Positions 5,290 through 54,560 of a stretch of 64,000 bases of DNA are shown here, piece after piece. This stretch comes from Macrostomum lignano (taxonomy: Eukaryota). A program made the position numbers and the translations under genes. Within the stretch, counting starts at the first letter, position 1, and each line of letters begins with the position of its first letter. The DNA is taken from positions 472,261 through 536,260 of the forward strand of contig NIVC01000558.1 in NCBI GenBank assembly GCA_002269645.1, written 5' to 3'. The notes beneath the pieces were generated by a model that saw nothing but the letters and a program-made list of their open reading frames with translations, ran no database searches and was not told the origin of the DNA.

Positions 5290-6441
5290 TCAGGCTGCTC
5301 GATCTGGAGCTTGAGCCACGTTAGCGCGGCCGCCTGCTGCGTTCGACTCCCGATGAGACATCAAATCTGCCATCAGCTTTGAAAAGTACACACGAAATTG
5401 CGGATTTCGCCGCATAACTATTGGAAAACTGCATGACTGGCCGATCAAAGACAGGGATCCAATGATAGCTAGAGAGTTCACCATTGTCCGCGAGGTATCA
5501 TCAGTTGGATCAGCAGAGTAACCCCGGATTGTCAGGGCCCAGTAGAGAGCGACTGTAGGAAGCTGAGCAACCAATCTCACCATTGCCAAGAGCAGCACAA
5601 CAATGGCTCCGTTTACTCCGTCGTGTCCTGGCGGCCCGTTTGCACTGCTGGGTGCATTGGCATGCCTTTCGAGGTTGTGCTTTCTTGCCCAGACAAGTCT
5701 CGTAATGAAGAACAGCAGGCCCAGATTCAGTAGCAGAACCGTAACCAGAATTACACTTGGCGGATTGCAGATTAGACTCCAGTAGAGCAAGGCAAGATTG
5801 TCGTTCGTTTCGAAGAAGCAGGCCACGATTATGCTTCCATTTGAGTTTGTAAAAGACCTTCGTTTGCCAGCTAAGATAGGCGGTATGGACAGCAAAGCCG
5901 ATGCGAGCACAGCTACCAGCATTGCGCGCAAGGCGGTCTTAGGACCAAAAGTTCTGAATCGAAACGGCGCCAAAAATGACATTGCTCTGTCAGCTACCAT
6001 CATCAATAGTACCGATGCGGACATCAACGGGCAGACAGTGATGATTGACATGTACATTTTGCAGCCCAAATATCCGTCATTCTGCATGATGTAGCCAACA
6101 GTGCCACCGCTGAGCCAGGGAAGTCCTCTGCTCAAAAAGAAGTTCACTAATCCGAACACAGGCATGGATACAGAGTCTGCAAGAGCGACGCCGCCAACGT
6201 AGACATTCTGCCGATTGATGGGTCGGATTTTTACCAGCATGCCGTAGGCAACAAAGCCGTTACCAAGGAAACCAAGAAGGATGATGAGCGGAAGCAGACA
6301 GCCGCAGGCAATACCCGCTATCTTGGCCGTGATGCAACGAATCTGTCTAACTGAGTCGCCTCCAAAGCATTCAACCAGCAGGATGAACATGTTGTGATAG
6401 TAGATTATTCCACCCGAGGAGCTGGCCGACGTCGAATTCAT
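5290..6441 (-). CDS. Intronless class A (rhodopsin-like) orphan GPCR, 383 aa
   Basis: About seven hydrophobic segments; TM1 GFLGN, TM2 LALAD, TM3 DRA (DRY-like), Cys in extracellular loops 1 and 2, TM6 AQLP. Confidence 0.85.
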   Translation of the reverse strand: MNSTSASSSGGIIYYHNMFILLVECFGGDSVRQIRCITAKIAGIACGCLLPLIILLGFLGNGFVAYGMLVKIRPINRQNVYVGGVALADSVSMPVFGLVNFFLSRGLPWLSGGTVGYIMQNDGYLGCKMYMSIITVCPLMSASVLLMMVADRAMSFLAPFRFRTFGPKTALRAMLVAVLASALLSIPPILAGKRRSFTNSNGSIIVACFFETNDNLALLYWSLICNPPSVILVTVLLLNLGLLFFITRLVWARKHNLERHANAPSSANGPPGHDGVNGAIVVLLLAMVRLVAQLPTVALYWALTIRGYSADPTDDTSRTMVNSLAIIGSLSLIGQSCSFPIVMRRNPQFRVYFSKLMADLMSHRESNAAGGRANVAQAPDRAA

Positions 6442-6775
6442 GGTGGGTACTTTTCTACGGAAAATTGTTTTAAACGAGAAAAACTGATGAAACTAAAGAC
6501 TTACGCGTTTGAAGATGAATTAAGACAGCTTCTGCCGTTCGTGGTTTCCTTCTAGCCCTTGGACCAGTCAAGCCAGGTTTAGCAAGTTCCAGTTTTCCCA
6601 TTTTATTGGATAATGGAAAACTATTGGACACTTTAATTGGGACGGTTTTTGTCTGTTGCCTATTTCGGTAATGGATGTTTTCACTAGTCCAGTAGTACTG
6701 CATGTAGTCCTAGTCAGGGACAAATCTCCTCCGGAGTTCAATTAGTCCGTCTAAAATTTTCATCAGTGCCATGAG

Positions 6776-7696
6776 ACTACTATATGAACCCGTATGGCGC
6801 GATTTTGGAGGTGAGGTGGGTGTCAACCCTCCTCGCCTCTCATTGGCTGGCGCCCCGATCACTAGGTGATCGATACCCGTATCGATATCGGCGCTCGGCG
6901 CGCGCGCGCCGCAGGCGCGTGGCGCCAAGCGCCGCAGGCGACCCTCCCCAGCCACCGGCGACCCTCCCCAGCCGCAGGCGCACCTACCGATATTAGATCC
7001 CAATAAATCAATCAGATCCCAAATCAATCAGATCCCAAGCGCACCCTCCCGAGCCGCAGGCGCCCATGCCGCAGGCACCCCGAGTGTACACTCTACCGAG
7101 CCGCAGGCACCCCGAGTGTACACTCTACCGAGCCACAGGCACCCCGAGTGTACACTCTACCGAGCCGCAGGCACCCCGAGTGTACACTCTACCGATATGT
7201 ACACTCTACCACTCTCCCGATATGTAGTCAACGATATTAGGCTAGTGAAAACTACTTATAGTAGGTGAAATTGAGTATATTTACATAAAAATGTAGATAA
7301 AACATATTGGTAGGTGAATAATGACGCATATTGCATATTAAAATGTACATATTGGAGCATATGAGCAGCAAAAACACACAATGTAGGTGTATGGGCAGAA
7401 ATAGACAAAGCAGGTACTGTAGGCGCTACATAGGTGGAAATACACACACACACAGCAGGTTTACAAAGTGTACTTTCGATACATATCGGATTAATGTATA
7501 AAGCGGGTTTACAAGGCATGCATAAGGCGTAGTTGTATAATGCAGGTGCGCATGTATAATCAGATTATAGGCAAACGCCCAGGTGCAACAGACGCGTAAA
7601 TAATGTCACACCGACTAAAGAGTAAATATTGTCTAACCCGCAGGTGCATAAAAATTTTAAACAAAAGCGGTTCGGGGAAATCCCAAAAGGGAGGTT
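6776..7696 (+). repeat. Left terminal inverted repeat (921 bp)
   Basis: Reverse complement of 15370-16290; identity stops after ...CAAAAGGGAGGTT; the same spurious 70-aa and 87-aa ORFs are predicted in both copies. Confidence 0.95.
7068..7195 (+). repeat. About 4 copies of a 32-bp tandem repeat inside the TIR (mirror copy ~15871-15998)
   Basis: Unit CCGAGCCGCAGGCACCCCGAGTGTACACTCTA with a GTGTACAC palindrome; no spacers. Confidence 0.9.
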
Positions 7697-8010
7697 TTAG
7701 CCGCCCGTTTTCGCCACCGCCGCCGCCGCCCTAACCCTCTTATAGGTACAATTGCGTTGAAAGTATTTCGAGTCATTAGGTTGTAATGACCCTCCATATT
7801 TTAGGTGGGTGGACTCGAGCCCGGGGCCAGCCCATTTCAGTTTTTTGGGCCGGCCCCTCTGCCAATTTCCTCCCTAGGAGCGAGCTATCAGAATTGGTCT
7901 TTTAACCCCCGTGTATACACCCATAGAGGCCCCCCAGCTAGCGCCCATTCTAACCTACCCAGTGTACAGTGTTGGGTTCCCCAAACCGCGTACAAAGAGA
8001 AATACCCTTA

Positions 8011-9025
8011 TCAGTCAATCTCCATACGCTCCCTCAGGGCTGTCTCGTACGCGGCCTCTTCCTCCACGCTCTCGAAGCAGTAGTCGGATGACTGGCAATG
8101 TGGAAATTATAACAGTCAATGTAGATAGAATATATGCAAGGTATATGATTAGATGAGTTGTGTATATAATGTAATATCTTACCAAATCTAAATCGTCCTC
8201 CAGCCGCCACAGACGTAGAGACGCTGTATAGCGCACCAACGAAAGGTGCTCCTCCCAGTTGGAGGGCCATGCGACGGGCTCATCCCACGCAGTTGGCCGC
8301 GCTCCCGGACCGGCCAGGTACGCCTCAGAGTCGGGGGCATACGAATTGCGCCCCATCAACCAGTCCTGGTGCAGAGTCTCAGCCTCCAACACCTCCCGTA
8401 GGCCGGCACCCCTCGCAACCAAAGTATCAAGAACCCGATTAAAGGCTCTGACAAAGGTAGCTTGGGAGGGCAGCCCGCCAGGATGCCGAGACCTCAGCCA
8501 GTCAATGTCCCCGCGGAAAAATGAGGCCACAATGCGAGGAAAGCGCTCACGAACCACGGCGATCTCCTCAGACATATCCTCGTCCTCGTCGTCGAAGAGA
8601 AGGAGCGTAGCGGCTGATGATATTGAGGCCCGGTGGGAGGTAGTTGAAGCAGCAGCAGAGACGGGCGTAGTAGAGGCGGCAGCAGCAGAGACGGGCGCAG
8701 CAGAGGCAGGGCCGGTTGTGGTCAGCTCCTCAACAGAGACGTCAAAGAGGGCGGCTGAGGCGGTAGTCAAATCGGAGGCAGTAGCAGCAGGGGCACCGTT
8801 CACAACCCCGCCGATAGCCAGCAGCGGGAGGTCAAAAACTTCAGACTCGGTGTCGCTATCATAGGACATAGCCCAAGCTAGATATTGATCAGCCTCCCAA
8901 TTATCAGTTCCGTTGTTTTCAGTGCCTAGGGGAACTATGTGTTCAGGGATATCCCCGTCGAGGCTGGTTAACTCTTCAGTCGGGCGATTATTATCCCAGA
9001 GGTTGGATAGAGCTCGGCGGGACAT
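8011..9025 (-). CDS. Element ORF3: acidic/low-complexity protein of unknown function, ~307 aa, 2 exons (9025-8183, 8091-8011)
   Basis: ATG at 9025 downstream of TATATAA (9098-9104) and a CCAAT box (9130-9134); 91-bp GTAAGA...CCAG intron (8182-8092) gives an in-frame acidic tail SSDYCFESVEEEAAYETALRERMEID*. Confidence 0.7.
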
Positions 9026-9140
9026 GCTAGAATCAACAGAGAGTAAAGTATTAGAGCTGAGATAGGGTTTGACTCTCTGGAGAGGGGGAAACACTAATTA
9101 TATAGACGGATCGAGTGAGGCGGTGCGAACCAATAGGAAA

Positions 9141-9673
9141 CTAGCAGTCCCAACCCTCGTTAAACAGATTTTCCCAGGGTGGAGATTGGTAGGGTTTGAG
9201 ACCCATGAGCTGAAGAACATCCACCTCAGTCCCGGCTACCGGAGGCGTGTCTGTCTTGACTCGCTTGGCTGGAGGGGGTGCCTCAGGTGCCGGCTTGAAG
9301 AGCTTGTCCAAACGGGCGGCAAACATCCGGCGCCACAGTTCAGGCGTGAATTCGATCGTGTAGCGCCAATTAAACTTTGGGTCCTGATTGAGCCAATTGC
9401 GCAGCAAACGGATCCTCCCTCGCGAAGCTTCAACTGCCTTGAAATTGCCCAACAGGACCCGCTTGTTCACGTGAAGGCGGGCAGCAGCCTCCAGGTCAGG
9501 GCGCGCGCTTCGAGCTTCTTCCACTCTGGCTCGGCCAAGTAGATTGCAGGGAAGCCGTCCTTCCACACTCCGGCCTCGTTGGTGTAGAGACGCCGAATTT
9601 CAATCAAGTTGTGTTCAGTTTCAAATGTGGGCTTCCGCGCCACAAAGTTTTCGTATAGAGAGATAGAAGACAT
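9141..9673 (-). CDS. PC4/Sub1-like ssDNA-binding protein, ~177 aa after repairing one -1 frameshift near 9500
   Basis: LIEIRRLYTNEAGVWKDGFPAIYLAEPEWKKLE resembles the PC4 core (IDIREYW...[20 protein letters not shown]). It joins ORF 9141-9566 if one C is added to GCCCTGAC; the second half looks like a second PC4-like repeat followed by a PPPAKRVK NLS-like motif. Confidence 0.65.
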
Positions 9674-9915
9674 GATTTAGCAGCAGCAGCAGCAGAGAGC
9701 TCTCTGACAGCCGTGCAGCGCCTTATATACCCCCGGGTGGAGGGTGGGGTGGGTGATGATTTTGGGGTGATTTTTGATGATTTTGGTTGGTTTTTGGCGA
9801 TTTATCCAATAACAGGCGAGCTGAGCAGATTTTTTAGTATATATACAGACCCCCAGAGCCAGGGTAGAGAGTTAAATCCTTCTCTCTCCGCTCTCTCACG
9901 CTCTCTGTTTGCAAA
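9674..9915. promoter_or_regulatory. Putative bidirectional Pol II promoter between the PC4-like gene and pPolB
   Basis: TATATAA on the - strand at ~9723-9729, TATATATA at 9838-9845 and CCAAT at 9806-9810, between head-to-head ATGs at 9673 and 9916. Confidence 0.55.
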
Positions 9916-12900
9916 ATGGCTAAACGCAGCGCCAACGCAACTGCTTTCCTGGCTGACAAGAGGCAACGTCTTTATGGTAAGTTTTAATTAATTTCTGTCT
10001 AGACTGTAGTTGCTAGGGTGGGGGTAGGGGCTGAGCAGCAGCAGCAGCTGCAGGGTCTGTGGGACCGCAGAGTAAACAACAAAGACTGCTGCGACAGCTG
10101 CAGGGGTCTAGACTGGAGTTGCTAGGGTGGGGTGCTGCGGCAGGGTCTGTAACAGAGAGTTGCAGGGGAGGGCTAGACAAGTTTCAGCCGGGTGTGTGCT
10201 GATAAGAAATTGCTGCTAGGGGGGTGTTGTCCAGACAGGCTGCAGCTGGGGTGCAAATTGCTGCGACAGAGAGTTGCAGGGGTGAGTAAACAAAGACTGG
10301 GGTGGGGGGGTTGTCTAGACAGGGAGGGGTGTGCTGATAAGAAATTGCTGCAAAAACAGACAGTTGCTAGGGTGCTGCGGCAGATAAGAAATTGCTGCAG
10401 AATCGTTGGGGCAGGCTAGACAAGTTACAGCCAGGTGGGGGCAGAGAGTTGCTGGGACTGTGTAGCGCGGGGACAGACTGATAAGAAATTGGCAGGGGCG
10501 CTACCCAGACAGGCTGCAGCTAGGTGCAAATTGCTGCGACAGAGAGTTGCAGGGGTGAGTAAACAAAGACTGCTGCGACAGGCTGCAGCGGGGGTGCAGA
10601 TAAGAAATTGCAGAGAGTTGCTGCGGGGACAGCAGAGTAAACTCTGTTAAGAAATTGCTGGGGCTAGGGCGGGGAAACACGCTGGGGCCAGGAAAATGAC
10701 AGATTCTTCTGGTTTTTTATCTCCTTGTGTTTTTTCAGACGCGTTTGTCCCGCCAACACAGCCGGAATCTGTTACCGGACCGGGTGAGTTATCCAGCCCC
10801 CCATTTCCCACACAGACCCTAGCTGACTCACACTCCCCCATTCCCCCCATGCAGGTTTTACGGCCAGGCTGGATAATCAGCGTGACCTGCCCAAGTTTAG
10901 GGCAAAGGGTGTCGAGTATGTGGTGCATATTACCAACACCGAAGATTTGCGGGAGGTGTTTGCTGACATGCTCGAAGTTTTCAAGCAAGATTTGGCTGGT
11001 GATGACTTTATGGCCGCGAAATTCGAGAGCGATAACATGCTCAAAGCGGCTCATACTCCCCCGGTGCGTGCAGCCCGCATGACAGCAGAGTTGTTGTTTA
11101 AGCACATTGACAAGATTGTACAGTCGGATGCCACTGTCCTGACGGGCAACTTTTCTATCCGGTTGCTAAAGGCCTGGGTGCCTCGAGGTGGATGTGCTCT
11201 CGAGAACAAGCATCTAGAAGAGCGGCACGCCTTCTCCCGGCACTATGTCCGCATCAACAACACGGACAAGAGATGCTTGCTGCGCGCTCTGGTCGTGGCC
11301 TGCGCCTACCTGCAATTCGTGGCCAAGTCCATCACCAAGCGGGTGTGGCACACAATCAAGGCCAATTCGCCCACGCAGACTAAGCTGGTGGCTGAGCTAC
11401 AAATCGAAGCTGGCCTCTACACGGTAAGTTGTGTACCGATAAGAATTTTTACACAGTATCGTGGAATACTAAAATTTTCTGATAAGAATTTTTACGATAA
11501 GGAATACTAAAAGAATTTTTACACAGTATCATGGAGTACTAAAAGATATATTTTCTGATAAGAATTTTTACACAGTATCATGGAATACTAAAATTTTCTG
11601 ATAAGAAATTTTACGATAAGGAATACTAAAAGAAATATTTTACCCTCCACACAGACTCTTCAAACCGTCTCGCAGGCTGGTCCTTTCGGCGTGGATGCAC
11701 TGCCCGAAGCGATCCGTGCCCTGAACCGGCTGCATCCGGGCGCGATTTTGGTGTACGCGTGTACCGCGCAGAGGAGGCCAACAGGTGCATCTTCAACCTG
11801 CCTGGCACCGAGATTCTGCACCTACACCTGGTCGAGCAGCACTTTAATGTGGTTACCAAGCTGCCTGCGTTTTTCGGCAGCCACCACTACTGCCCCAAGT
11901 GCGAGATGGCCTATGATAGCGAACCCGCCAAGCACAAGTGCGCTGATGCCTGCAGTACATGCAAGACTCCGGGCTCCAACTGTAAGGCAAACCGCGCATA
12001 TGTAAGATGCCATGATTGCGGGCTAAATTGCTATAATGCTCAGTGCCTAGAAAATCACAAGCGCAAGAATAAGGCCGGCAGATCGCGCTGTGATTCGGTC
12101 CACGTTTGCGACACGTGTGGCTATCTAGAAGAACTAAAAGTAGGCCAGCCCCCTGAGCATCAGTGTGGTTACGCCAAGTGCCCAGTCTGCAAGCAGTACG
12201 ACGAAACTGCCACCCACGAGTGCTTTGTCACCCCGCCCAAAGCCAAAGAGTCTAGCGCCCCGTATGTTTACTATGATTTCGAGACGTACGTGGACTCTGG
12301 CAAGCAGCACCGGGTACACTTGGTTACGGCTGCCACCTCCTGCGAGGCGTGTCCCAAACTCTTCCCCAGGCCCCGCTGCAGCGCGTGCGGGGGACTACAC
12401 AGCTCAGCCAATTGCATTGCGGGACGCGATTTGGCACTCGATTTCACGAGCTGTGTCTCGCACAATGACTGTGCCTGTGGGATGCGAGAGTTTGTATCTG
12501 TCGGGCCGCACTCTATCGATGCCTTTTACTGCTGGCTGACTAGTGTGTTCAAGCAGGGGGCAATTGCTATTGCGCACAATGGCTCTGCGTATGACGCATT
12601 CCTCCTGCTCGGCGCCCTACTCAACGGACTGGCCAAGAAGAAGCCGCAAGTGATCTTCCAGAACAGCCGCCTAATGTATATGAAGTGCGACAAGATCACC
12701 TTCAAGGACAGCCTCAATTTCATCCCTATTGGTCTGGCGCAATTCCCAAAGGCGCTTGGTTTGGGCACCCAACTGACCAAAGGAGATTTCCCGCACGTCT
12801 TCAATCAGCCTCAAAATTGGGGGTACGTCGGTCCCTACTGCTCAATTGATATGTACGGCGGGAAGAAGAATAAGCAGCATGACTCCATCGCCGACTGGCT

Positions 12901-15015
12901 GGCCAAGCAGGAGGGACAGGTGTTTAATTTTAATAAGGAGTACCTGGACTACTGCCTGCAGGACACGTTAATTTTGCGGGAAGGCTGCCTGAAATATGCC
13001 CGCCTGATTAAGGACATTTGCGGACTGGACGCATTTGTTCAATCCAACACCATTGCGGGCTTGGCCATGTCGGTATTCACCACCAAGTTTATGGAGCCCA
13101 ACACTCTTGGGGTGATTTCCCGCCGGTCCGATGTACAGTCGCACAAGGCGCGGTGCTGGCTGGCACATTTAAATGCAACCGAGTTTGGCGGCCGGTTGCG
13201 GACAGCCGATTCTGGCGGCGAGGCTTTCGCCATGGGCCGTAAGGTCGACGGCTTCGACCCAGAGACCAGGACAGTGCTGCAGTTTCATGGCTGTTTCTTC
13301 CATGGCTGTCCCAAGTGCTTCCCCAACGGCGACGTGCTGCACCCGCTCAAGAACCAGCCAATGCGGGCAATTTATGAAGAGACGAGCGCTTCACCCGGCT
13401 GCTCTCCACTGCATACAATGTGCGTGTTCTGTGGGAGCACGACTATCAGGACGAGGGAGCGCCAGTCCAGCAGCCTATTCGCCTGGAGGAAGCCCTGTTT
13501 GGCGGCCGTACCGAGGCTTTTGTCCCGCACGCCGAGGCCACCGAGACTGTAGAGCTGCGCTATCGGGATGTGGTAAGTTTGTACACTTGTACACACACAG
13601 TTGACATGCGTTTGAGTTTATCTTATCCTTATCCCCTAGGTGTCGCTCTACCCGACTGTCAACAAGTTTGACAAGTACCCGGTCGGGCACCCGGTACACC
13701 ACCCCGAGCCTCATCTACTGGATGAGCTGCAGCTGGCCCGGTATTTTGGCATCGCCGAGGTGTCGATTCTGCCGCCAACCAATCTCCACATCCCGCTACT
13801 GCCCGCCAAGATTAACAAGAAGTTGGTTTTCGGCCTCTGCCGCGTCTGCATGGAGACCCAGTGCAGCAGCGAGTGTACACACACTGACGCTGAGAGAATG
13901 CTCCGCGGCACGTGGTCGACCCCAGAGCTCCACAAGGCCCTGCAGTTGGGTTACAAGCTGCAGTCAGTTCATGCCCTGGCCTATTGGACCGAGACTCGCA
14001 CGGGTCTGTTTGCAGATTATGTAAACACTTTTTTAAAGCTCAAAGCCGAGTCTAGCGGTTCGCCAGGGATGACTGAGGGCGCCAAGGCTGCCTACATGGC
14101 CAGCTTTTTCGAGCGCGAGGGCGTCCGGCTGGAAAAGGTGGAGGAGAATCCTGGCTTGCGCTTTGTGGCCAAGATTTTTCTAAACTCGTAAGTTTTTTCT
14201 ACTTGCAGTGGGGGCCGTGTTTTTCTACTTACAAAAAAAAATTTATTTTTCCCTGCAGGCTCTGGGGCAAATTCTGCCAGCGCGACGACCTGACCTCCAC
14301 AGAGATTGTGGACAGCTACGAGGCGTGGCTGCAGCGCCTGACCGACCCCTCGATCAAGGTCAAGTCGTGCGAGCCAATTGGGGAGAGCTTCATGATGCTC
14401 GAGTACAAGCCCCGATTTGGCGGTGCTGGCGAGCGGGCGTTCAAGTACGCTAATGTACCTATTGGCGTTTTCACCACCTCCCACGCCCGGCTGCGACTCT
14501 ACGAGGCTCTGGAGGGCCTAGGAACCCGCGTCATTTACGCCGATACCGATTCGTAAGTAATTTTTCCACTGTCTCTGTCTCTCTTTCTCCCCTTAACACT
14601 TTATTCTCCTCCTTCTCCCAGGGTTGTATACCGCTGCTCCCCGGGCGAGTACGAGCCTCCGGGCGGTTCGAGTTTGGGGCAGTGGACTGACGAGGTACCT
14701 GCTGGCTGCCGCATGGTACAGTTCACCACGGGAGGCCCCAAGCTCTACCGGTACTTAGTGGAGAAGCCCGACGGGTCGCTGTACTCGGTGCTCAAGTGCA
14801 AGGGCATCAGAGTCACCCCCGAGATTTCCGAGCGCGAGGACGAGCTGCAGGAAATTCTGCGCCACGGCGGGACTGTACGCCTGCCCCAGGCCCAGTTCAG
14901 GCGCGATAAGGCCAGCTGTACAATCCGGACCCTCGAGATGGACAAGACTTTCCAGCGAGTAATGACTAAGAGGGTGTATGGGGCCGCCAGCCGTCCGTAT
15001 GGCTTTCGTGAGTGA
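9916..15015 (+). CDS. pPolB: Protein-primed family B DNA polymerase (Polinton type), 7 exons: 9916-9976, 10739-10783, 10855-11423, 11676-13572, 13640-14187, 14259-14552, 14622-15015
   Basis: ExoI YYDFET, ExoII IAHNGSAYD, FKDSLNF, ExoIII YCLQDTLIL, ALFGGRTE; motif A YRDVVSLYP, motif B KIFLNSLWGKF and motif C YADTDSV are restored only by splicing GT-AG introns; all intron phases match. Exons total 3808 nt, plus 2 missing G = 1270 codons. Confidence 0.93.
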
Positions 15016-15369
15016 GTGAAAGATAAGGATCTGTCTTTGCACGCCTGGGATTCCCCTATGTGCCCACTTGGGATCCCTTGACTCGTGGGGATGAAAATGG
15101 TTTTACGCCCGCACTGTACTTAGGGGTCCTTACTCATTTGGCGCCTCCACTGTACATTGAGCGGGATCCCCTCAAGTGTTAAAACTCCCATTTGACACCT
15201 ATTCCCTCGGGGCGGTTTGTGGCCCAGCGGTCCGCCTCTTGGAGTAGAACTCCTGACATGAACTTGCTGCGCTGATTAGCGTACTGATAGCGCAATCGAA
15301 ATACGTCCATTTTTCTAGCCCACTTGTGGGTTTAATTGTGTTGAAAGTATATCGGGTCATTAGGCCGTG

Positions 15370-16290
15370 AACCTCCCTTTTGGGATTTCCCCGAACCGCT
15401 TTTGTTTAAAATTTTTATGCACCTGCGGGTTAGACAATATTTACTCTTTAGTCGGTGTGACATTATTTACGCGTCTGTTGCACCTGGGCGTTTGCCTATA
15501 ATCTGATTATACATGCGCACCTGCATTATACAACTACGCCTTATGCATGCCTTGTAAACCCGCTTTATACATTAATCCGATATGTATCGAAAGTACACTT
15601 TGTAAACCTGCTGTGTGTGTGTGTATTTCCACCTATGTAGCGCCTACAGTACCTGCTTTGTCTATTTCTGCCCATACACCTACATTGTGTGTTTTTGCTG
15701 CTCATATGCTCCAATATGTACATTTTAATATGCAATATGCGTCATTATTCACCTACCAATATGTTTTATCTACATTTTTATGTAAATATACTCAATTTCA
15801 CCTACTATAAGTAGTTTTCACTAGCCTAATATCGTTGACTACATATCGGGAGAGTGGTAGAGTGTACATATCGGTAGAGTGTACACTCGGGGTGCCTGCG
15901 GCTCGGTAGAGTGTACACTCGGGGTGCCTGTGGCTCGGTAGAGTGTACACTCGGGGTGCCTGCGGCTCGGTAGAGTGTACACTCGGGGTGCCTGCGGCAT
16001 GGGCGCCTGCGGCTCGGGAGGGTGCGCTTGGGATCTGATTGATTTGGGATCTGATTGATTTATTGGGATCTAATATCGGTAGGTGCGCCTGCGGCTGGGG
16101 AGGGTCGCCGGTGGCTGGGGAGGGTCGCCTGCGGCGCTTGGCGCCACGCGCCTGCGGCGCGCGCGCGCCGAGCGCCGATATCGATACGGGTATCGATCAC
16201 CTAGTGATCGGGGCGCCAGCCAATGAGAGGCGAGGAGGGTTGACACCCACCTCACCTCCAAAATCGCGCCATACGGGTTCATATAGTAGT
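15370..16290 (-). repeat. Right terminal inverted repeat (921 bp)
   Basis: Mirror of 6776-7696; ends ...GGTTCATATAGTAGT followed by TSD CATGAG. Confidence 0.95.
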
Positions 16291-16689
16291 CATGAGGGAC
16301 TCTGACAGTTCTAATTAGTTTTTAATAGCTCTAATAAATTAACTCGACATGCTGGTTGTGCCAAAACACGGGGCCATCATTTAATTGCTCTATAGCTCTA
16401 GGTAAGTCTAGGAGTCTGAATTGAATTACGAGGTATTTTCACTTGACGACCGTCCAAGTCAACAAATCCGACTAAGTGATCGACTTTTTAATTTATTAGA
16501 TGCTGTTTATTTCAGTTTAATTGCGACAACTCAACCAGTTTGGATAATTATTCTGTAGCTGGTTTTATTAACAAATTCTCCCTTGCTTCAACACTCTGCC
16601 TTTTGCCATTGAAAATATGAAATCAAAGGTCGAAAAACAGACCTAAGGCAAGGGCTACTAAAGTAGAAGGACGCCACACTCGAAATCTA

Positions 16690-37582: not shown

Positions 37583-38195
37583 TAAAGTGTCACTGGCAAA
37601 CCCAGCCGACCATTCTCCATCTGTTTCGAGCTCAGCAACACAAAATCCTCAGTTATAAGCTTTTTTTCTGCAAAATATTTGCCATAAAATTGCTAACTAA
37701 ATTGGAAATCTTCAGAGAGCTCCGCTTGGTTTCCAGGCCTCAGCCCTGCCCTCCCTCCCCTCTCCATCTCTCTCCCCTCGTGTCTCAGCTGCCGCCCCTT
37801 CACCCCTGCCCACTGACAATGCACTTGCTATGCCGAGCACGCAGCCACAGTCAGCTCTCATTGTTTAACTCAGCAGAGCTCGCAGCATCTCACTGCTCCT
37901 GCATCTCTCACCCCGCTGAGCAGAGCAGCTGCCGGGCCCCCTGGCACCCAATCAGGCCTCAAACACAGCCGCTGGGTCAGAGAAGAGAATCGGGCTCAGT
38001 CCATTTAAACAAATTTCTCTGCACAGGGAGAGCTCAGAGATTTCAGTCCGTGACAGCTGGAGTTTTGCTGCTGCTGCTGGGCTGGCAGGCAAATTCGCTT
38101 GAAGAAGAGCAAAGCACTCAGTTTGAAGCCGTGTGGAACAGCTGCGGCAGACAGCAGATCGGCAGAGAAGCGCTGCTAGGAGAAGCTGTGTAGCC

Positions 38196-41100
38196 ATGGC
38201 AACAGAGATGGAGCGGAAGCTGAGAGCGGCGCTGGAGGCTGGAGACAGCGAGGAGCTGCAACGACTGTGCGGTGAGGTCGGCAGCAACATCAAGCTGGAG
38301 GTGGGCGGCTTCGACAAGCAAGACTATCCCTTTGAAGAGCTTCGCAAAATGCCGCTGGCCCATCACGTGGCCTGCAAGCCGGTGAGCTCGTCGTGCCTGG
38401 AGCTGCTGATTGACAGATTCGGAACCGGCTGTCTGACATACGGATATGATAGGGACGAGACTCCAGTGCACTTGGCTGCCCAGCATCAGGACGAGTCTTG
38501 GATGAAGCTGGTTAAAGAGAAGGGAGGCAGAAGCTGCTTGAGAATTGTCGATAGATTGGAACAGATAGTCGCTCCCTTTGCCGCTATGAACAGAAAAAGC
38601 AACTCTTGTCTGAAGTGGCTGGTGAAGGAGCTCGGCAGCGACTGTCTCACAGTTCCTGACAAACGCGGTAACACGGCCGTCCATTTGGCCGCTCAGCATC
38701 AGGGCATCGAGTCGCTGGAGTGGATCAAGAGACAGATCGGAACTGACTGCTTTCGGCTGAAGGGAAATTATGATAGAACAGCATTTCACTTTGCTGCTCT
38801 GAAGTCTGACAATTCAAATCTGAAGTGGCTGGTGAAGGAGCTCGGCAGCGACTGTCTCACAGTTCCTGACATTTGCGGCGACAGGGCCGTCCATTTGGCC
38901 GCTCGGCATCAGGGCATCGAGTCGCTGGAGTGGATCAAGAGACAGATCGGAACTGACTGCTTTCGGCTGAAGGGAGACTATGATAGAACAGCATTTCACT
39001 TTGCTGCTCAGAAGTCTGACAATTCAAATCTGAAGTGGCTGGTGAAGGAGCTCGGCAGCGACTGTCTCACAGTTCCTGACATTTGCGGCGACAGGGCCGT
39101 CCATTTGGCCGCTCGGCATCAGGGCATCGAGTCGCTGGAGTGGATCAAGAGACAGATCGGAACTGACTGCTTTCGGCTGAAGGGAGACTATGATAGAACA
39201 GCATTTCACTTTGCTGCTCAGAAGTCTGACAATTCAAATCTGAAGTGGCTGGTGAAGGAGCTCGGCAGCGACTGTCTCACAGTTCCTGACGAAGACGGTG
39301 ACACGGCCGTCCATTTGGCCGCTCAGCATCAGGGCATCGAGTCGCTGGAGTGGATCAAGAGACAGATCGGAACTGACTGCTTTCGGCTGAAGGAAGACTA
39401 TGATAGAACAGCATTTCACTTTGCTGCTCAGAAGTCTGACAATTCAAATCTGAAGTGGCTGGTGAAGGAGCTCGGCAGCGACTGTCTCACAGTTCCTGAC
39501 AAATACGGTTACACGGCCGTCCATTTGGCCGCTCGGCATCAGGGCATCGAGTCGCTGGAGTGGATCAAGAGACAGATCGGAACTGACTGCTTTCGGCTGA
39601 AGGGAGACTATGATAGAACAGCATTTCACTTTGCTGCTCAGAAGTCTGACAATTCAAATCTGAAGTGGCTGGTGAAGGAGCTCGGCAGCGACTGTCTCAC
39701 AGTTCCTGGCTCACTGTGTATCACGGCCGTCCATTTGGCCGCTCAGTGGCAGCCAGTCGACTCTCTTCAGTTCATTTTTGACCAAATCGGAGCCGAAATG
39801 TTCAGCTTGAAGAAAAAGGATGGCGAAACACTGGCTGATGTTGTTGAGAGATGGTGGTGCACAGACCAGTCAGCAAAGCGGACCTGGATTTCCTCCACGC
39901 AGCGGCGGCTCGAAGCCTCTCGGCCTCCCGCTGGCAGCTCAGCGCCGACTGCCGCCTCAGCTGGGTGAGTCCTGACTGAGAACTGCTGCCTGACACTGAA
40001 AATACTGAAAATATTGTTTGGCGAAAATTCATTGCGCTTTGATGATCGGCGCCCTGAAATTCTCAGCAGCGCCGCTGTCAAGCGAGGGCATCATGAATCT
40101 GTCAGTGCAGCTCCTCATGGCGCCTCCAACTCTCCATGGCGCCCCAACCTCCCCATGGCGCCTCCAATCTCCTCATGGCGCCCCAAACTCCCCATAGCGC
40201 CTCCAATCTCCCCATGGCCTTTCAATCTCCCCATGGCGCCTCCAATCTCCTCATGGCTCCTCTAATCTCCTCATGGCTCACTCGTAAAACTCTTCCTACA
40301 GTGCTGCAGCTCAGCGTCCCCGCCCACGAGCTCGACAGAGCGTCCAGCCGCCTGGGCCGACTCCGGTCGGACATCCTGAGGAGACTCGGTGAGAAATGAT
40401 AAGGCGACAGTTGGTGAACTCGTCAAAACCTGCAGTCTGAGCGCAGGCAACCAGCCAAAAGGAACCTGGCACTTCATGGCACCTGCGGATGCTCATGGCA
40501 GAAGGGTGGTGACGCAGAAGGGTGGTGACGCAGAAGGGTGGTGACGCAGAAGGGTGGTGACGCAGAAGGGTGGTGACGCAGAAGGGTGGTGACGCAGAAG
40601 GGTGGTGACGCAGAAGGGTGGTGACGCAGAAGGGTGGTGACGCAGAAGGGTGGTGACGCAGAAGGGTGGTGACGCAGAAGGGTGGTGACGCAGAAGGGTG
40701 GTGACGCAGAAGGGTGGTGACGCAGAAGGGTGGTGACGCAGAAGGGTGGTGACGCAGAAGGGTGGTGACGCAGAAGGGTGGTGACGCAGAAGGGTGGTGA
40801 CGCAGAAGGGTGGTGACGCAGAAGGGTGGTGACGCAGAAGGGTGGTGACGCAGAAGGGTGGTGACGCAGAAGGGTGGTGACGCAGAAGGGTGGTGACGCA
40901 GAAGGGTGGTGACGCAGAAGGGTGGTGACGCAGAAGGGTGGTGACGCAGAAGGGTGGTGACGCAGAAGGGTGGTGACGCAGAAGGGTGGTGACGCAGAAG
41001 GGTGGTGACGCAGAAGGGTGGTGACGCAGAAGGGTGGTGACGCAGAAGGGTGGTGACGCAGAAGGGTGGTGACGCAGAAGGGTGGTGACGCAGAAGGGTG

Positions 41101-47689: not shown

Positions 47690-50600
47690 AGAGATGAGTG
47701 AAAAGGAGGAGAGGAAAGAAGAGGAGAGATGTAATTGATGAAGGAAGAGAAGATAGGAAAGAAGAGGAGAGAAGGGAGAGAAGGGAGAGAAGGGAGAGAA
47801 GAGAAGAGAAGAGAGAGAAGAGGAGAGAAGGGAGAGAAGAGAAGAGAAGGGAGAGAAGGGAGAGAAAGGAGAGAAGAGAAGAGAAGGAAGAGAAGAGGAA
47901 AGAAGGGAGAGAAGGGAAAGAAGGGAGAGAAGGGAGAGAAGGGAGAGAAGGGAGAGAAGGGAGAGAAGAGGAGAGAAGGAGAGGAAAGAAGGGAGAGAAG
48001 GGAGAGAAGGGAGAGAAGGGAGAGAAGAGGAGAGAAGGAGAGGAAAGAAGGGAGAGAAGGGAGAGAAGGGAGAGGAGGGGAAAGAAGGGAGAGAAGCGGA
48101 GAGAAGGGAGAGAAGGGAGACAAGGGAGAGAAGGGAGAGAAGAGGAGAGAAGGAGAGGAAAGAAGGGAGAGAAGGGAGAGAAGGGAGAGGAGGGGAAAGA
48201 AGGGAGAGAAGGGAGAGAAGGGAGAGAAGGGAGAGAAGAGAAGAGAAGAGAGAGAAGGGAGAGATGGAGAGAAGGGAGAGAAGGGAGAGAAGGGAGAGAA
48301 GAGGAGAGAAGGAGAGGAAAGAAGGGAGAGAAGGGAGAGAAGGGAGAGGAGGGGAAAGAAGGGAGAGAAGCGGAGAGAAGGGAGAGAAGGGAGACAAGGG
48401 AGAGAAGGGAGAGAAGGGAGAGAAGAGGAGAGAAGGAGAGGAAAGAAGGGAGAGAAGGGAGAGAAGAGGAGAGAAGGAGAGGAAAGAAGGGAGAGAAGGG
48501 AGAGAAGGGAGAGGAGGGGAAAGAAGGGAGAGAAGCGGAGAGAAGGGAGAGAAGGGAGAGAAGAGGAGAGAAGGAGAGGAAAGAAGGGAGAGAAGGGAAA
48601 GAAGGGAGAGAAGGGAGAGAAGGGAGAGAAGGGAGAGGAGGGAAAGAAGGGAGAGAAGGGAGAGAAGGGAGAGGAGGGAGAGAAGGGAGAGAAGGGAGAG
48701 AAGAGAAGAGAAGGAAGAGAAGAGGAGAGAAGGGAGAGAAGAGAAGAGAAGGGAGAGAAGACAGAGAAGGGAGAGAAGGGAGAGAAGAGGAGAGAAGGAG
48801 AGGAAAGAAGGGAGAGAAGGGAGAGAAGGGAGAGGAGGGGAAAGAAGGGAGAGAAGAGGAGAGAAGGGAGAGATGGAGAGAAGGGAGAGAAGGGAGAGAA
48901 GAGAGAGAAGAGGAGAGAAGGAGAGGAAAGAAGGGAGAGAAGGGAGAGAAGGGAGAGGAGGGGAAAGAAGGGAGAGAAGCGGAGAGAAGGGAGAGATGGA
49001 GAGAAGGGAGAGAAGGGAGAGAAGGGAGAGAAGAGGAGAGAAGGAGAGGAAAGAAGGGAGAGAAGGGAGAGAAGGGAGAGGAGGGGAAAGAAGGGAGAGA
49101 AGGGAGAGAAGGGAGAGGAGGGGAAAGAAGGGAGAGAAGCGGAGAGAAGGGAGAGAAGGGAGAGAAGAGGAGACAAGGAGAGGAAAGAAGGGAGAGAAGG
49201 GAAAGAAGGGAGAGAAGGGAGAGAAGGGAGAGAAGGGAGAGAAGGGAGAGAAGAGGAGAGAAGGAGAGGAAAGAAGGGAGAGAAGGGAGAGAAGGGAGAG
49301 AAGGGAGAGAAGAGAAGAGAAGAGAGAGAAGGGAGAGATGGAGAGAAGGGAGAGAAGGGAGAGAAGGGAGAGAAGAGGAGAGAAGGAGAGGAAAGAAGGG
49401 AGAGAAGGGAGAGAAGGGAGAGGAGGGGAAAGAAGGGAGAGAAGCGGAGAGAAGGGAGAGATGGAGAGAAGGGAGAGAAGGGAGAGAAGGGAGAGAAGAG
49501 GAGAGAAGGAGAGGAAAGAAGGGAGAGAAGGGAGAGAAGGGAGAGGAGGGGAAAGAAGGGAGAGAAGCGGAGAGAAGGGAGAGATGGAGAGAAGGGAGAG
49601 AAGGGAGAGAAGGGAGAGAAGAGGAGAGAAGGAGAGGAAAGAAGGGAGAGAAGGGAGAGAAGGGAGAGAAGAGGAGAGAAGGAGAGGAAAGAAGGGAGAG
49701 AAGGGAGAGAAGGGAGAGAAGGGAGAGGAGGGGAAAGAAGGGAGAGAAGAGGAGAGAAGAGAAGAGAAGGAAGAGAAGAGGAGAGAAGGGAGAGAAGAGA
49801 AGAGAAGGGAGAGAAGGGAGAGAAGGGAGAGAAGGGAGAGAAGAGAGAGAAGGGAGAGAAGAGAGAGAAGAGGAGAGAAGGAGAGGAAAGAAGGGAGAGA
49901 AGGGAGAGAAGAGGAGAGAAGGAGAGGAAAGAAGGGAGAGAAGGGAGAGAAGGGAGAGGAGGGGAAAGAAGGGAGAGAAGCGGAGAGAAGGGAGAGAAGG
50001 GAGAGAAGAGGAGAGAAGGAGAGGAAAGAAGGGAGAGAAGGGAAAGAAGGGAGAGAAGGGAGAGAAGGGAGAGAAGGGAGAGGAGGGGAAAGAAGTGAGA
50101 GAAGGGAGAGAAGGGAGAGGAGGGAGAGAAGGGAGAGAAGGGAGAGAAGAGAAGAGAAGGAAGAGAAGAGGAGAGAAGGGAGAGAAGAGAAGAGAAGGGA
50201 GAGAAGACAGAGAAGGGAGAGAAGGGAGAGAAGAGGAGAGAAGGAGAGGAAAGAAGGGAGAGAAGGGAGAGAAGGGAGAGGAGGGGAAAGAAGGGAGAGA
50301 AGCGGAGAGAAGGGAGAGATGGAGAGAAGGGAGAGAAGGGAGAGAAGGGAGAGAAGAGAAGAGAAGGAGAGGAAAGAAGGGAGAGAAGGGAGAGAAGGGA
50401 GAGGAGGGGAAAGAAGGGAGAGAAGCGGAGAGAAGGGAGAGATGGAGAGAAGGGAGAGAAGGGAGAGAAGGGAGAGAAGAGGAGAGAAGGAGAGGAAAGA
50501 AGGGAGAGAAGGGAGAGAAGAGAGAGAAGGGAGAGGAGGGGAAAGAAGGGAGAGAAGGGAGAGAAGGAAGAGAAGGGAGAGAAGAGGAGAGAAGGAGAGG

Positions 50601-52975
50601 AAAGAAGGGAGAGAAGGGAAAGAAGGGAGAGAAGGGAGAGAAGGGAGAGAAGGGAGAGAAGGGAGAGAAGAGGAGAGAAGGAGAGGAAAGAAGGGAGAGA
50701 AGGGAGAGAAGGGAGAGAAGGGAGAGAAGAGGAGAGAAGGAGAGGAAAGAAGGGAGAGAAGGGAGAGAAGGGAGAGGAGGGGAAAGAAGGGAGAGAAGCG
50801 GAGAGAAGGGAGAGAAGGGAGACAAGGGAGAGAAGGGAGAGAAGAGGAGAGAAGGAGAGGAAAGAAGGGAGAGAAGGGAGAGAAGGGAGAGGAGGGGAAA
50901 GAAGGGAGAGAAGCGGAGAGAAGGGAGAGATGGAGAGAAGGGAGAGAAGGGAGAGAAGGGAGAGAAGAGGAGAGAAGGAGAGGAAAGAAGGGAGAGAAGG
51001 GAGAGAAGGGAGAGGAGGGGAAAGAAGGGAGAGAGCGGAGAGAGAGAGAGGAGAGAAGGGAGAGAAGGAGAGAAGGGAGAGAAGGGAGAGGAGAGGGAAA
51101 GAAGGGAGAGAAGGGAGAGAAGGGAGAGAAGAGGGAGAGAAGAAGGAGAGAAGGAGAGAAGGGAAGGAGAGAGAGGAGAGAAGAGGAGAGAAGAGAAGAG
51201 AAGAGGAGAGAAGGGAGAGAAGAGGAGAGAAGGGAGAGAAGGGAGAGAAGGGAGAGAAGGGAGAGAAGAGGAGAGAAGGAGAGAAGAGAAGGGAGAGAAG
51301 AGGAGAGAAGGGAGAGAAGGGAGAGAAGAGAAGAGAAGAGAGAGAAGGGAGAGAAGGAGAGAAGGGAGAGAAGGGAGAGAAGGGAGAGAAGAGAGAGAAG
51401 GAGAGGAAAAAAGGGAGAGAAGGGAGAGAAGGGAGAGGAGGGGAAAGAAGGGAGAGAAGCGGAGAGAAGGGAGAGAAGGGAGACAAGGGAGAGAAGGGAG
51501 AGAAGGGAGAGAAGAGGAGAGAAGGAGAGGAAAGAAGGGAGAGAAGGGAGAGAAGAGGAGAGAAGGAGAGGAAAGAAGGGAGAGAAGGGAGAGAAGGGAG
51601 AGGAGGGGAAAGAAGGGAGAGAAGCGGAGAGAAGGGAGAGAAGGGAGAGAAGAGGAGAGAAGGAGAGGAAAGAAGGGAGAGAAGGGAAAGAAGGGAGAGA
51701 AGGGAGACAAGGGAGAGAAGGGAGAGAAGGGAGAGAAGGGAGAGAAGGGAGAGAAGAGGAGAGAAGGGAGAGAAGGGAGAGAAGGGAGAGAAGCGGAGAG
51801 AAGGGAGAGAAGGAAGAGAAGGGAGAGAAGGGAGAGAAGAGGAGAGAAGGAGAGGAAAGAAGGGAGAGAAGGGAGAGAAGAGGAGAGAAGGAGAGGAAAG
51901 AAGGGAGAGAAGGGAGAGAAGAGGAGAGAAGGAGAGGAAAGAAGGGAGAGAAGGGAGAGAAGGGAGAGGAGGGGAAAGAAGGGAGAGAAGGGAGAGAAGG
52001 GAGAGGAGGGAGAGAAGAGGAGAGAAGAGGAGAGAAGGGAGAGAAGGGAGAGAAGGGAGAGAAGCGGAGAGAAGGGAGAGAAGGGAGAGAAGGGAGAGAA
52101 GGGAGAGAAGAGGAGAGAAGGAGAGGAAAGAAGGGAGAGAAGGGAGAGAAGAGGAGAGAAGGAGAGGAAAGAAGGGAGAGAAGGGAGAGAAGAGGAGAGA
52201 AGGAGAGGAAAGAAGGGAGAGAAGGGAGAGAAGGGAGAGGAGGGGAAAGAAGGGAGAGAAGGGAGAGAAGGGAGAGGAGGGAGAGAAGGGAGAGAAGAGG
52301 AGAGAAGAGGAGAGAAGGGAGAGAAGGGAGAGAAGGGAGAGAAGAGGAGAGAAGGAGAGGAAAGAAGGGAGAGAAGGGAGAGAAGAGGAGAGAAGGAGAG
52401 GAAAGAAGGGAGAGAAGGGAGAGAAGAGGAGAGAAGGAGAGGAAAGAAGGGAGAGAAGGGAGAGAAGAGGAGAGGAGGGGAAAGAAGGGAGAGAAGGGAG
52501 AGAAGGGAGAGGAGGGAGAGAAGAGGAGAGAAGAGGAGAGAAGGGAGAGAAGGGAGAGAAGGGAGAGAAGCGGAGAGAAGGGAGAGAAGGGAGAGAAGGG
52601 AGAGAAGGGAGAGAAGAGGAGAGAAGGAGAGGAAAGAAGGGAGAGAAGGGAGAGAAGAGGAGAGAAGGAGAGGAAAGAAGGGAGAGAAGGGAGAGAAGAG
52701 GAGAGAAGGAGAGGAAAGAAGGGAGAGAAGGGAGAGAAGGGAGAGGAGGGGAAAGAAGGGAGAGAAGGGAGAGAAGGGAGAGGAGGGAGAGAAGGGAGAG
52801 AAGAGGAGAGAAGAGGAGAGAAGGGAGAGAAGGGAGAGAAGGGAGAGGAGGGAGAGGAGGGAGAGAAGGGAGAGAAGGGAGAGGAGGGGAAAGAAGGGAG
52901 AGAAGGGAGAGAAGGGAGAGGAGGGGAAAGAAGGGAAAGAAGGGAGAGAAGGGAGAGAAGGGAGAGAAGGAGTCA
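47690..52975 (+). repeat. 5.3-kb polypurine/polypyrimidine tract (GAAGGGAGAGA-type units)
   Basis: The + strand is almost exclusively G and A; higher-order blocks marked by rare AAGCGGAG, GAGACAAG and GAGATGG variants. Confidence 0.97.
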
Positions 52976-53269
52976 AAGTGTTGTATTTGTCCAGCTGGCC
53001 CACTTAAGCGAGAAAAGTCAGAGATTTCCCAGGAAATTTGGTAAAATTTTACACAGCAACATTTTTTGTCAATGTCGCTCACTGCAAGGAGCAAATTTAC
53101 CTGACACTGCATGCTTACTGGCAGATTCCGGTTTTACTTCGGAAAACGCTGGAATAACAAATTTAATAATCTGCTAATAGCCCTTATATTGTATCTTAAT
53201 CTTCTGTCCAAGTGTGTGTCTTTGTGTCAGTCTGTTTTTGCACCTGTCTGCCAGCGCCAAAACGAGTAC

Positions 53270-54560
53270 ATTTGGCGCAAAAATGAGTGCCTGCGGCGCC
53301 AAATTGAGTGCCTGCGGCGCCAAAATGAGTGTCTGCGGCGCCAAAATGAGTGCCTGCGGCGCCAAATTGAGTGCCTGCGGCGCCAAAATGAGTGCCTGCG
53401 GCGCCAAAATGAGTGTCTGCGGCGCCAAAATGAGTGTCTGCGGCGCCAAAATGAGTGCCTGCGGCGCCAAATTGAGTGCCTGCGGCGCCAAAATGAGTGC
53501 CTGCGGCGCTAAAATGAGTGCCTGCGGCGCTAAAATGAGTGCCTACGGCGCCAAAACGAGTGCCTACGGCGCCAAAATGAGTGCCTGCGGCGCCAAAATG
53601 AGTGCCTGCGGCGCCAAAATGAGTGTCTGCGGCGCTAAATTGAGTGCCTACGGCGCCAAAACGAGTGCCTACGGCGCCAAAATGAGTGCCTGCGGCGCCA
53701 AAACGAGTGCCTACGGCGCCAAAATGAGTGCCTGCGGCGCCAAAATGAGTGCCTGCGGCTATAAAATGAGTGTCTGCGGCTATAAAATGAGTGCCTGCGG
53801 CTATAAAATGAGTGCCTGCGGCTATAAAATGAGTGTCTGCGGCGCCAAAATGAGTGCCTGCGGCTATAAAATGAGTGCCTGCGGCTATAAAATGAGTGCC
53901 TGCGGCGCCACAATGAGTGCCTGCGGCGCTAAATTGAGTGCCTATGGCGCTAAAATGAGTGCCTGCGGCGCCAAAATGAGTGCCTGCGGCGCTAAATTGA
54001 GTGCCTATGGCGCTAAAATGAGTGCCTGCGGCGCCAAAATGAGTGCCTGCGGCGCCAAAATGAGTGCCTGCGGCGCCAAAATGAGTGCCTGCGGCTATAA
54101 AATGAGTGCCTGCGGCTATAAAATGAGTGCCTGCGGCGCCAAAATGAGTGCCTGCGGCGCTAAAATGAGTGCCTGCGGCGTTAAAATGAGTGCCTGCGGC
54201 GCCAAAATGAGTGCCTGCGGCGCAAAAATGAGTGCCTGCGGCGCTAAAATGAGTGCCTGCGGTGCCAAAATGAGTGCCTGCGGCGCCAAAATGAGTGCCT
54301 GCGGCGCCAAAATGAGTGCCTGCGGTGCCAAAATGAGTGCCTGCGGCGTTAAATGAGTGCCTGTGGCGCCAAAATGAGTGCCTGCGGCGCCAAAATGAGT
54401 GCCTGCAGCGCCAAAATGAGTGCCTGCGGCGCCAAAATGAGTGCCTGCGGCGCCAAAATGAGTGCTGACAACACCGATTCTCAAACTAATGCAGGAATTT
54501 AGTCGATTCTTGGCTTCGAGTCCCCTCCCCTACCATGAAATCCATTGCGATAAAACCCTG
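53270..54560 (-). mobile_element. MITE family X remnant with ~57 internal 21-bp units
   Basis: (GCCAAAATGAGTGCCTGCGGC)n at ~53270-54465 followed by the family 5' end TTCTTGGCTTCG...CCATGAAATCCATTGCGATAAAACCCTG. Confidence 0.65.

Follow-up and report, generated by a model that had tools for sequence, protein, structure and literature searches.

A mobile family of spliced, Polinton-like elements with no detected integrase gene in the flatworm Macrostomum lignano

The closest described relatives of the element analysed here are the Polintons, or Mavericks, in which a 6-bp target-site duplication (TSD) is a signature, a 5'-AC type of end is known, and replication is described as jumping back from repeated-trinucleotide ends (PMC8097293). 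Nine Polintons have been reported to lack the major capsid protein (MCP), protease (PRO) and ATPase (PMC4028283), and one survey recognised elements by an integrase-linked open reading frame (ORF) of at least 900 aa for the protein-primed polymerase pPolB (bioRxiv 2023.08.22.554363). Here we describe a 9,515-bp element occupying positions 6776-16290 of a 64,000-nucleotide stretch of Macrostomum lignano DNA (contig NIVC01000558.1, positions 472,261 to 536,260; hereafter the window), in which pPolB is spliced and selected, and in which we detected no integrase. The element probably belongs to an old lineage of Polinton-derived replicons that is still mobile, copies itself and is inserted in trans by the integrase of a helper.

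Structure, expression and mobility of the element

The element begins and ends 5'-ACTACTA...TAGTAGT-3'. Its 921-bp terminal inverted repeats (TIRs) show 0 mismatches and CATGAG flanks both sides, as the initial annotation had reported; chance is excluded as the source of this hexamer pair by the perfect TSDs of all 18 copies described below. The three-gene core that had been proposed also held up: ORF3 and a PC4-like gene lie on the minus strand, with pPolB divergent on the plus strand, and the spliced genes occupy 8011-15015, with exactly 314 and 354 bp left over at the core edges, the approximate figures first given (Table 1).

The polymerase assignment was borne out by Pfam, with matches to PF03175 above cut-off (E 2e-14 and 5e-13). 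Open copies of pPolB encode 1,276 aa comprising an N-terminal region, a vOTU-like Cys/His motif, Exo I-III, an inserted nuclease-like motif and Pol A-C; the domain order is that of PMC11161782. Eight of the 18 copies are open over their whole length, nine carry small indels, and in one exon 3 was not resolved. The polymerase keeps all its catalytic motifs and is under purifying selection: the pooled pairwise ratio of non-synonymous to synonymous differences (pN/pS) over exons 3-7 is 0.11, from 12-16 copies per exon of modal length and without stops. Its closest UniRef proteins are from M. lignano itself (28 of 56 matches, one of them carrying no species name), the rest being 26-38% identical; in IMG/VR the TIR had no match and pPolB reached two distant contigs at 27-30%, which is uninformative.

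Six GT-AG introns interrupt pPolB and one interrupts ORF3, giving seven spliced introns in total. Each pPolB intron was joined in at least two of the three public runs that we guess to be RNA (from three studies), and a seventh joint, which removes the ORF3 intron, was present in all three; contigs of a further run, X15, read through the introns and showed none of the seven joints. As run types are guesses, the evidence for expression is the splice joints themselves, by which the element is transcribed and spliced. Frame breaks in the window copy, near 9,500 in the PC4-like gene and near 11,740 and 13,380 in pPolB, were seen neither in other copies nor in contigs from the public runs, so they are copy-specific or assembly errors; their absence from the run contigs means that many breaks across the family may likewise be assembly errors.

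The second gene, called a single-stranded DNA (ssDNA)-binding protein gene in the initial annotation, encodes 152-177 aa in 16 of 18 copies. In the ESM Atlas its top match was a PC4 cluster (score 0.91, 201 of 256 features in common), as were 27 of 30 matches, which is moderate evidence for a PC4-like, putatively ssDNA-binding protein. About 55 further loci, including C393:122508, hold a third group of PC4-like homologs (29-34% identity, frames of 245-265 aa), and on C393 the homolog lies ~9 kb from an intronless pPolB; this group is a candidate ancestor or helper family, and its homolog near pPolB makes the C393 type the leading helper candidate.

ORF3 has an acidic, low-complexity N-terminal half and a helical C-terminal half. 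It belongs to no Pfam family and has no ESM Atlas match; among 1.84 billion representatives only five near-identical matches were found, with no outside relative. Its helical model (pLDDT 62) gave no Foldseek match, and the best Z of 7.1, to cytomegalovirus IE1 (rmsd 3.5, 98 aligned), was equalled by a designed bundle and lacked significance. An apparent hydrophobic tail falls in the intron. The suggestion that ORF3 might prove to be an integrase or capsid thus found no Pfam, Atlas or significant fold similarity in its favour, and since in 8 of 18 copies all that remains of ORF3 is its last intron and exon, and these copies still have their own TSDs, the gene is dispensable; weak indications make it an accessory gene, most likely regulatory.

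A search with exon 5 returned ~56 pPolB loci at ≥91% identity together with ~38 matches, at 61-78%, to a second family; counting fragments, there were 127 matches. We read the 18 best-scoring of 431 candidates, and these copies, which differ in their TSDs but agree in their minimal content, range from 8,455 to 9,773 bp. A perfect 6-bp TSD flanks every one; two share flanks, leaving 17 independent sites. Target preference is weak, with a pyrimidine at the symmetrised position 3 (35 of 42). The sequences on either side of the window copy join directly on C1752, with an exact six-base overlap, and on C1780, at 96-98% identity; with both homologous sites empty, the window insertion is younger than those homologous regions, in agreement with the recent insertion first proposed. 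The family thus enters numerous unrelated sites, each time duplicating exactly 6 bp; it is real and active, not a one-off.

In 8 of 10 copies the two TIRs match each other at ≥97.8% identity, and between copies the median is 92.9% (105 pairs from 15 copies, first 700 nt); the likeness within copies would indirectly favour an extrachromosomal linear form. Positions 8-27 of the TIR (window 6783-6802) are block-wise hypervariable between the invariant ACTACTA and TTTTGGAGGTG, with 11 variants in 15 copies, which may reflect competition over the origin or over integrase recognition.

Missing genes and the age of the lineage

Like the initial annotation, we found neither integrase nor capsid gene. 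No integrase, ATPase, protease or capsid family matched the 11 coding pieces in Pfam, nor any of 43 other stop-to-stop frames of at least 70 aa, which gave two unrelated weak matches; tblastn with the resident Polinton's integrase, ATPase and putative capsid proteins and with a Gypsy integrase found nothing at E ≤ 1 either in the element or in 30 loci of the family, the absence of a protease being a Pfam result. The core is filled by its three other genes, with no coding space left for virion genes. Genome-wide family scans have low sensitivity here and do not serve as evidence of absence, the PF04665 scan having come back empty although a resident ATPase scores E 8e-7.

A sister family places these features deep in the lineage. 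The family-B element read (one copy, 9,698 bp) has ACTACG ends, the TSD TATGTG and all six pPolB introns at the positions seen in the window's family, here family A, to whose pPolB its own is 58-60% identical in amino acids. A FastTree of 33 proteins, which omits a fragmentary model as well as the resident pPolB, an unrelated protein, joins A and B in one clade on a stem of 1.28 substitutions per site; its deeper placement is unreliable. Because introns, ends, TSD and size are common to two families this far apart, the lineage is old rather than a fresh deletion. The family-B copy lacks the PC4-like gene, and at three other family-B loci a 45%-identical PC4-like gene stands, by coordinates, divergent beside pPolB. 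Family B itself was considered as a complete helper and set aside: the copy read has the same intron-split pPolB, and no integrase or capsid was evident among its listed frames, no profile scan having been made. On C3085 and C4430, family-B pPolB exon matches occur twice in opposite orientation, ~2 kb apart, which suggests palindromic derivatives in this family too.

These data bear on the possibility that the element is a recent deletion derivative of a resident Polinton, or that the copies are dead and spread by segmental duplication. Ten of 18 pPolB copies, the window copy included, are broken or incompletely resolved, complete Polintons are abundant in the genome, and pPolB-plus-TIR remnants without integrase are described at 10 loci in Caenorhabditis elegans (bioRxiv 2024.01.15.575659). 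The family's pPolB, however, barely aligns to that of the abundant Polinton, a remote relative (E 2e-4 over 145 aa); its introns are common to families 40% apart, pN/pS is low, TSDs and flanks differ at 17 of the 18 copies, and the window-copy breaks are missing from the run contigs. We regard this explanation as largely refuted and highly improbable. Nor is the locus the single decayed, untranscribed copy that the initial annotation had allowed for: copies are many, spliced in the RNA-type runs and under purifying selection.

Table 1. Features of the element in window coordinates
Feature	Position	Strand	Basis and remarks
Left TSD, CATGAG	6770..6775	none	On C1752 the empty site has the hexamer once (two flank matches overlap by 6 nt)
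Left TIR, 921 bp, start ACTACTA (trinucleotide repeat)	6776..7696	+	Predicted origin of protein-primed replication and integrase substrate
ORF3, orphan gene, 307 aa	8011..9025	-	Exons 9025-8183 and 8091-8011, intron 8182-8092; splice joint in runs X1, X4 and X6, not X15
PC4-like gene, putative ssDNA-binding protein	9141..9673	-	ESM Atlas; Pfam PF02229 below cut-off
Putative divergent promoter region	9674..9915	none	Separates pPolB from the PC4-like gene; TATA-like boxes near 9724 and 9838
pPolB gene, 7 exons	9916..15015	+	9916-9976, 10739-10783, 10855-11423, 11655-13572, 13640-14187, 14259-14552, 14622-15015
Right TIR, same as left, end TAGTAGT	15370..16290	-	Sequence comparison
Right TSD, CATGAG	16291..16296	none	Sequence

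Outside the element, a host gene for a rhodopsin-family G-protein-coupled receptor (PF00001, E 4e-10) lies at 5290-6492 on the minus strand, its start ~330 bp from the insertion. The region 29,300-59,500 holds many tandem-repeat arrays with 8-25 bp units, including a purine-rich tract of 5 kb at 47,700-53,000. It also contains host genes, which we labelled by eye as a putative repeat protein with 70-aa units (38,127-39,968) and putative kinase and methyltransferase-like frames.

Possible sources of the integrase

Complete Polintons are at hand as candidate helpers. One on C2506, ~18 kb long, has an intronless pPolB, an A32-like ATPase and an rve integrase (E 1e-6, just under cut-off), together with two putative capsid genes, so labelled from their position rather than from Pfam. 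The 140 scored matches to Polinton integrase fall into two families, 118 at ≥82% and 22 at 60-62%, and one putative capsid gene of C2506 has 115 matches in the genome. In the C2506 family a phospholipase A2-like segment is fused to the integrase (Pfam E 0.017). This Polinton and the family TIR have a 15-base GC-rich motif in common, and a similar motif occurs in the tandem repeats of the window near 53,100-54,400.

On the reading we favour, modelled on established Polinton and adenovirus biology, a linear copy would replicate by strand displacement, primed by a terminal protein at each ACTACT end, the displaced strand being coated by the PC4-like protein. Pairing of the TIRs would keep both ends of one molecule alike while copies diverge, and new linear copies would be inserted in trans by the retroviral-like integrase of a complete Polinton. 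The introns would have been gained in a lineage long nuclear and vertically inherited. The likeness to the adenovirus E2 trio drawn in the initial annotation holds at the level of function; in the parts it does not, since the terminal protein is here predicted to form one polypeptide with pPolB, and the binding protein resembles PC4.

Several observations weigh against this reading. The right end of the C2506 Polinton appears to be ACTACT-3' (5'-AGTAGT type), as against the element's AGTAGT-3', so that the termini shared with a full Polinton, for which the initial annotation suggested looking, were not seen at the one complete end compared, the ends of other intronless pPolB families (the C114, C393, C1704 and C201 types) being unread; the helper may therefore be the C2506 family with a tolerant integrase, or another Polinton family. 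All 18 copies read are minimal, yet one unread TIR pair on C271 spans 40.6 kb and, by coordinates, holds a resident-type pPolB, capsid and integrase between the family pPolB and PC4-like gene, which would answer to the longer, integrase- and capsid-bearing copies that the initial annotation had considered; from these coordinates we think it likely to be a nested insertion of the common Polinton. Two of the 10 copies with compared TIRs, C41 and C135, have unlike TIRs and an intact TSD, which requires recombination or conversion. The run reads do not tell which copies are transcribed. As for the proposed binding protein, gene 2 scores under the cut-off for PF02229 (E 0.034), and structure searches with its low-confidence model (pLDDT 50), which were uninformative, did not find a PC4 fold.

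A rival explanation is self-integration by an unrecognised activity, whether of the PC4-like protein, of ORF3 or of the nuclease-like insert in pPolB. In its favour, no helper sharing these ends was found, ACTAC ends are preserved in two families 58-60% identical, and a nuclease-like motif does lie inside pPolB. Set against this, the same FHGC motif is in the alignment consensus with nine distant pPolBs, and Polintons that do bear an integrase are reported to contain VSR inserts (bioRxiv 2023.08.22.554363). ORF3, moreover, is missing from 8 of 18 copies with their own TSDs, and an exact 6-bp stagger with weak sequence preference fits a DDE integrase. We consider self-integration improbable.

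The same ends also flank other elements. A 25-base TIR pattern matched 237 times in the genome (control, 0); among the first 100 matches listed there are 33 TIR pairs, of which 15 enclose a family pPolB match and 18 do not, and 13 of these 18 measure 8.1-9.9 kb. The three polymerase-free pairs that we read each have a 6-bp TSD: two are non-coding giant palindromes, on C436 and C93 (9.3 and 8.7 kb, 99.4% perfect, no evident gene), and the third carries Gypsy sequence. Rfam gave no match in three loci, the C436 palindrome among them. The palindromes, 97% alike over ~1.9 kb, may have arisen by snap-back during strand-displacement replication and could give rise to hairpin RNA. The element's polymerase would in turn copy such non-coding same-end elements, giant palindromes and cargo elements alike. 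A segmented genome, with integrase and capsid on a second segment bounded by the same TIRs, is not supported, no Polinton gene being present in the 3 of 18 polymerase-free pairs read.

The third element, at C558:43420-53410, is a small element with family ends and the TSD CCTGTA that carries, within a total of 9.9 kb, two tandem Gypsy copies with three long terminal repeats (LTRs), integrase genes included. It raises the alternative of an integrase supplied by LTR retrotransposons or some other DDE element rather than by a Polinton, as does the abundance of rve candidates, which number in the thousands (4,300 candidates, 150 scored). The Gypsy LTRs there start TGTTG, though, unlike ACTACT, and Gypsy cargo is present in one of the three polymerase-free elements read. 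Gypsy integrases, besides, usually require CA-3' ends and give 4-5 bp duplications. We attach little likelihood to this source and return to a Polinton integrase as the preferred one.

Elements with these ends converge on 8-10 kb despite unrelated contents (two polymerase families, giant palindromes and the Gypsy-dimer cargo). If packaging were limited to around 9 kb, roughly half the length of the helper genome, this would be accounted for, and the ~9-kb convergence suggests, speculatively, packaging by helper capsids. More tentatively still than insertion in trans, the element might then be a satellite of animal Polintons, with its own polymerase, a helper's integrase and capsid, and non-coding parasites of its own; we hold this possible but doubtful.

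Comparison with known systems

With Polintons and Mavericks the element shares a PF03175 pPolB with vOTU-like and exonuclease and polymerase motifs in the domain order of PMC11161782, as well as long TIRs, repeated-trinucleotide ends and a 6-bp TSD. It differs in having no detected integrase, ATPase, protease or capsid genes and in its size of 8.5-9.8 kb, against ~17 kb (autonomous range 13-25 kb). Intact vertebrate Mavericks are described as intronless, in contrast to the six spliceosomal pPolB introns here, and Maverick ends as (AGT)2, (AG)3 or (AC)3A, beside which 5'-(ACT)2 is a new type (PMC8097293). The capsid-less Polintons, as described, and the non-autonomous Polinton derivatives of Repbase are alike in reductive loss of virion genes and TIR-bounded mobilisation; in the present element no integrase is detected and the polymerase is kept by selection.

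Linear plasmids of the pGKL type, cytoplasmic or mitochondrial, and transpovirons are capsid-less linear replicons with TIRs and a terminal-protein-fused polymerase, as the present element is predicted to be. It differs from them in being nuclear, spliced and chromosomally integrated with a 6-bp TSD, and no RNA polymerase or helicase was found in it. Transpovirons depend on a helper virus (PMC11161782). Casposons and pipolins, which carry their own recombinase and are mainly prokaryotic, resemble the element in being self-synthesising, integrated and equipped with a family B polymerase.

No selected, spliced, mobile, integrase-less Polinton family appeared in the literature we searched, a coverage that excluded Repbase, subscription journals and supplements, so the family may have been annotated earlier under the Polinton name. 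Surveys that require an integrase-linked pPolB ORF miss such elements, which may therefore be common.

Because this laboratory flatworm expresses copies of the element and has complete Polintons in abundance, free linear intermediates, the terminal protein and the virions of animal Polintons are testable in existing cultures. Were the satellite interpretation true, a laboratory animal would harbour a three-tier system, which would hint indirectly at virion formation by animal Polintons. In function the element resembles the replication half of a Polinton, standing apart from full members in integrase, virion genes, size and introns, and it would indicate that the two halves of the Polinton cycle are separable between elements. 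It would also offer a living example, in the nucleus and with intron gain, of the step from virus to capsid-less replicon. Non-autonomous transposons normally lose their coding capacity; this element keeps, splices and selects a full replication module and, it would seem, outsources its insertion.

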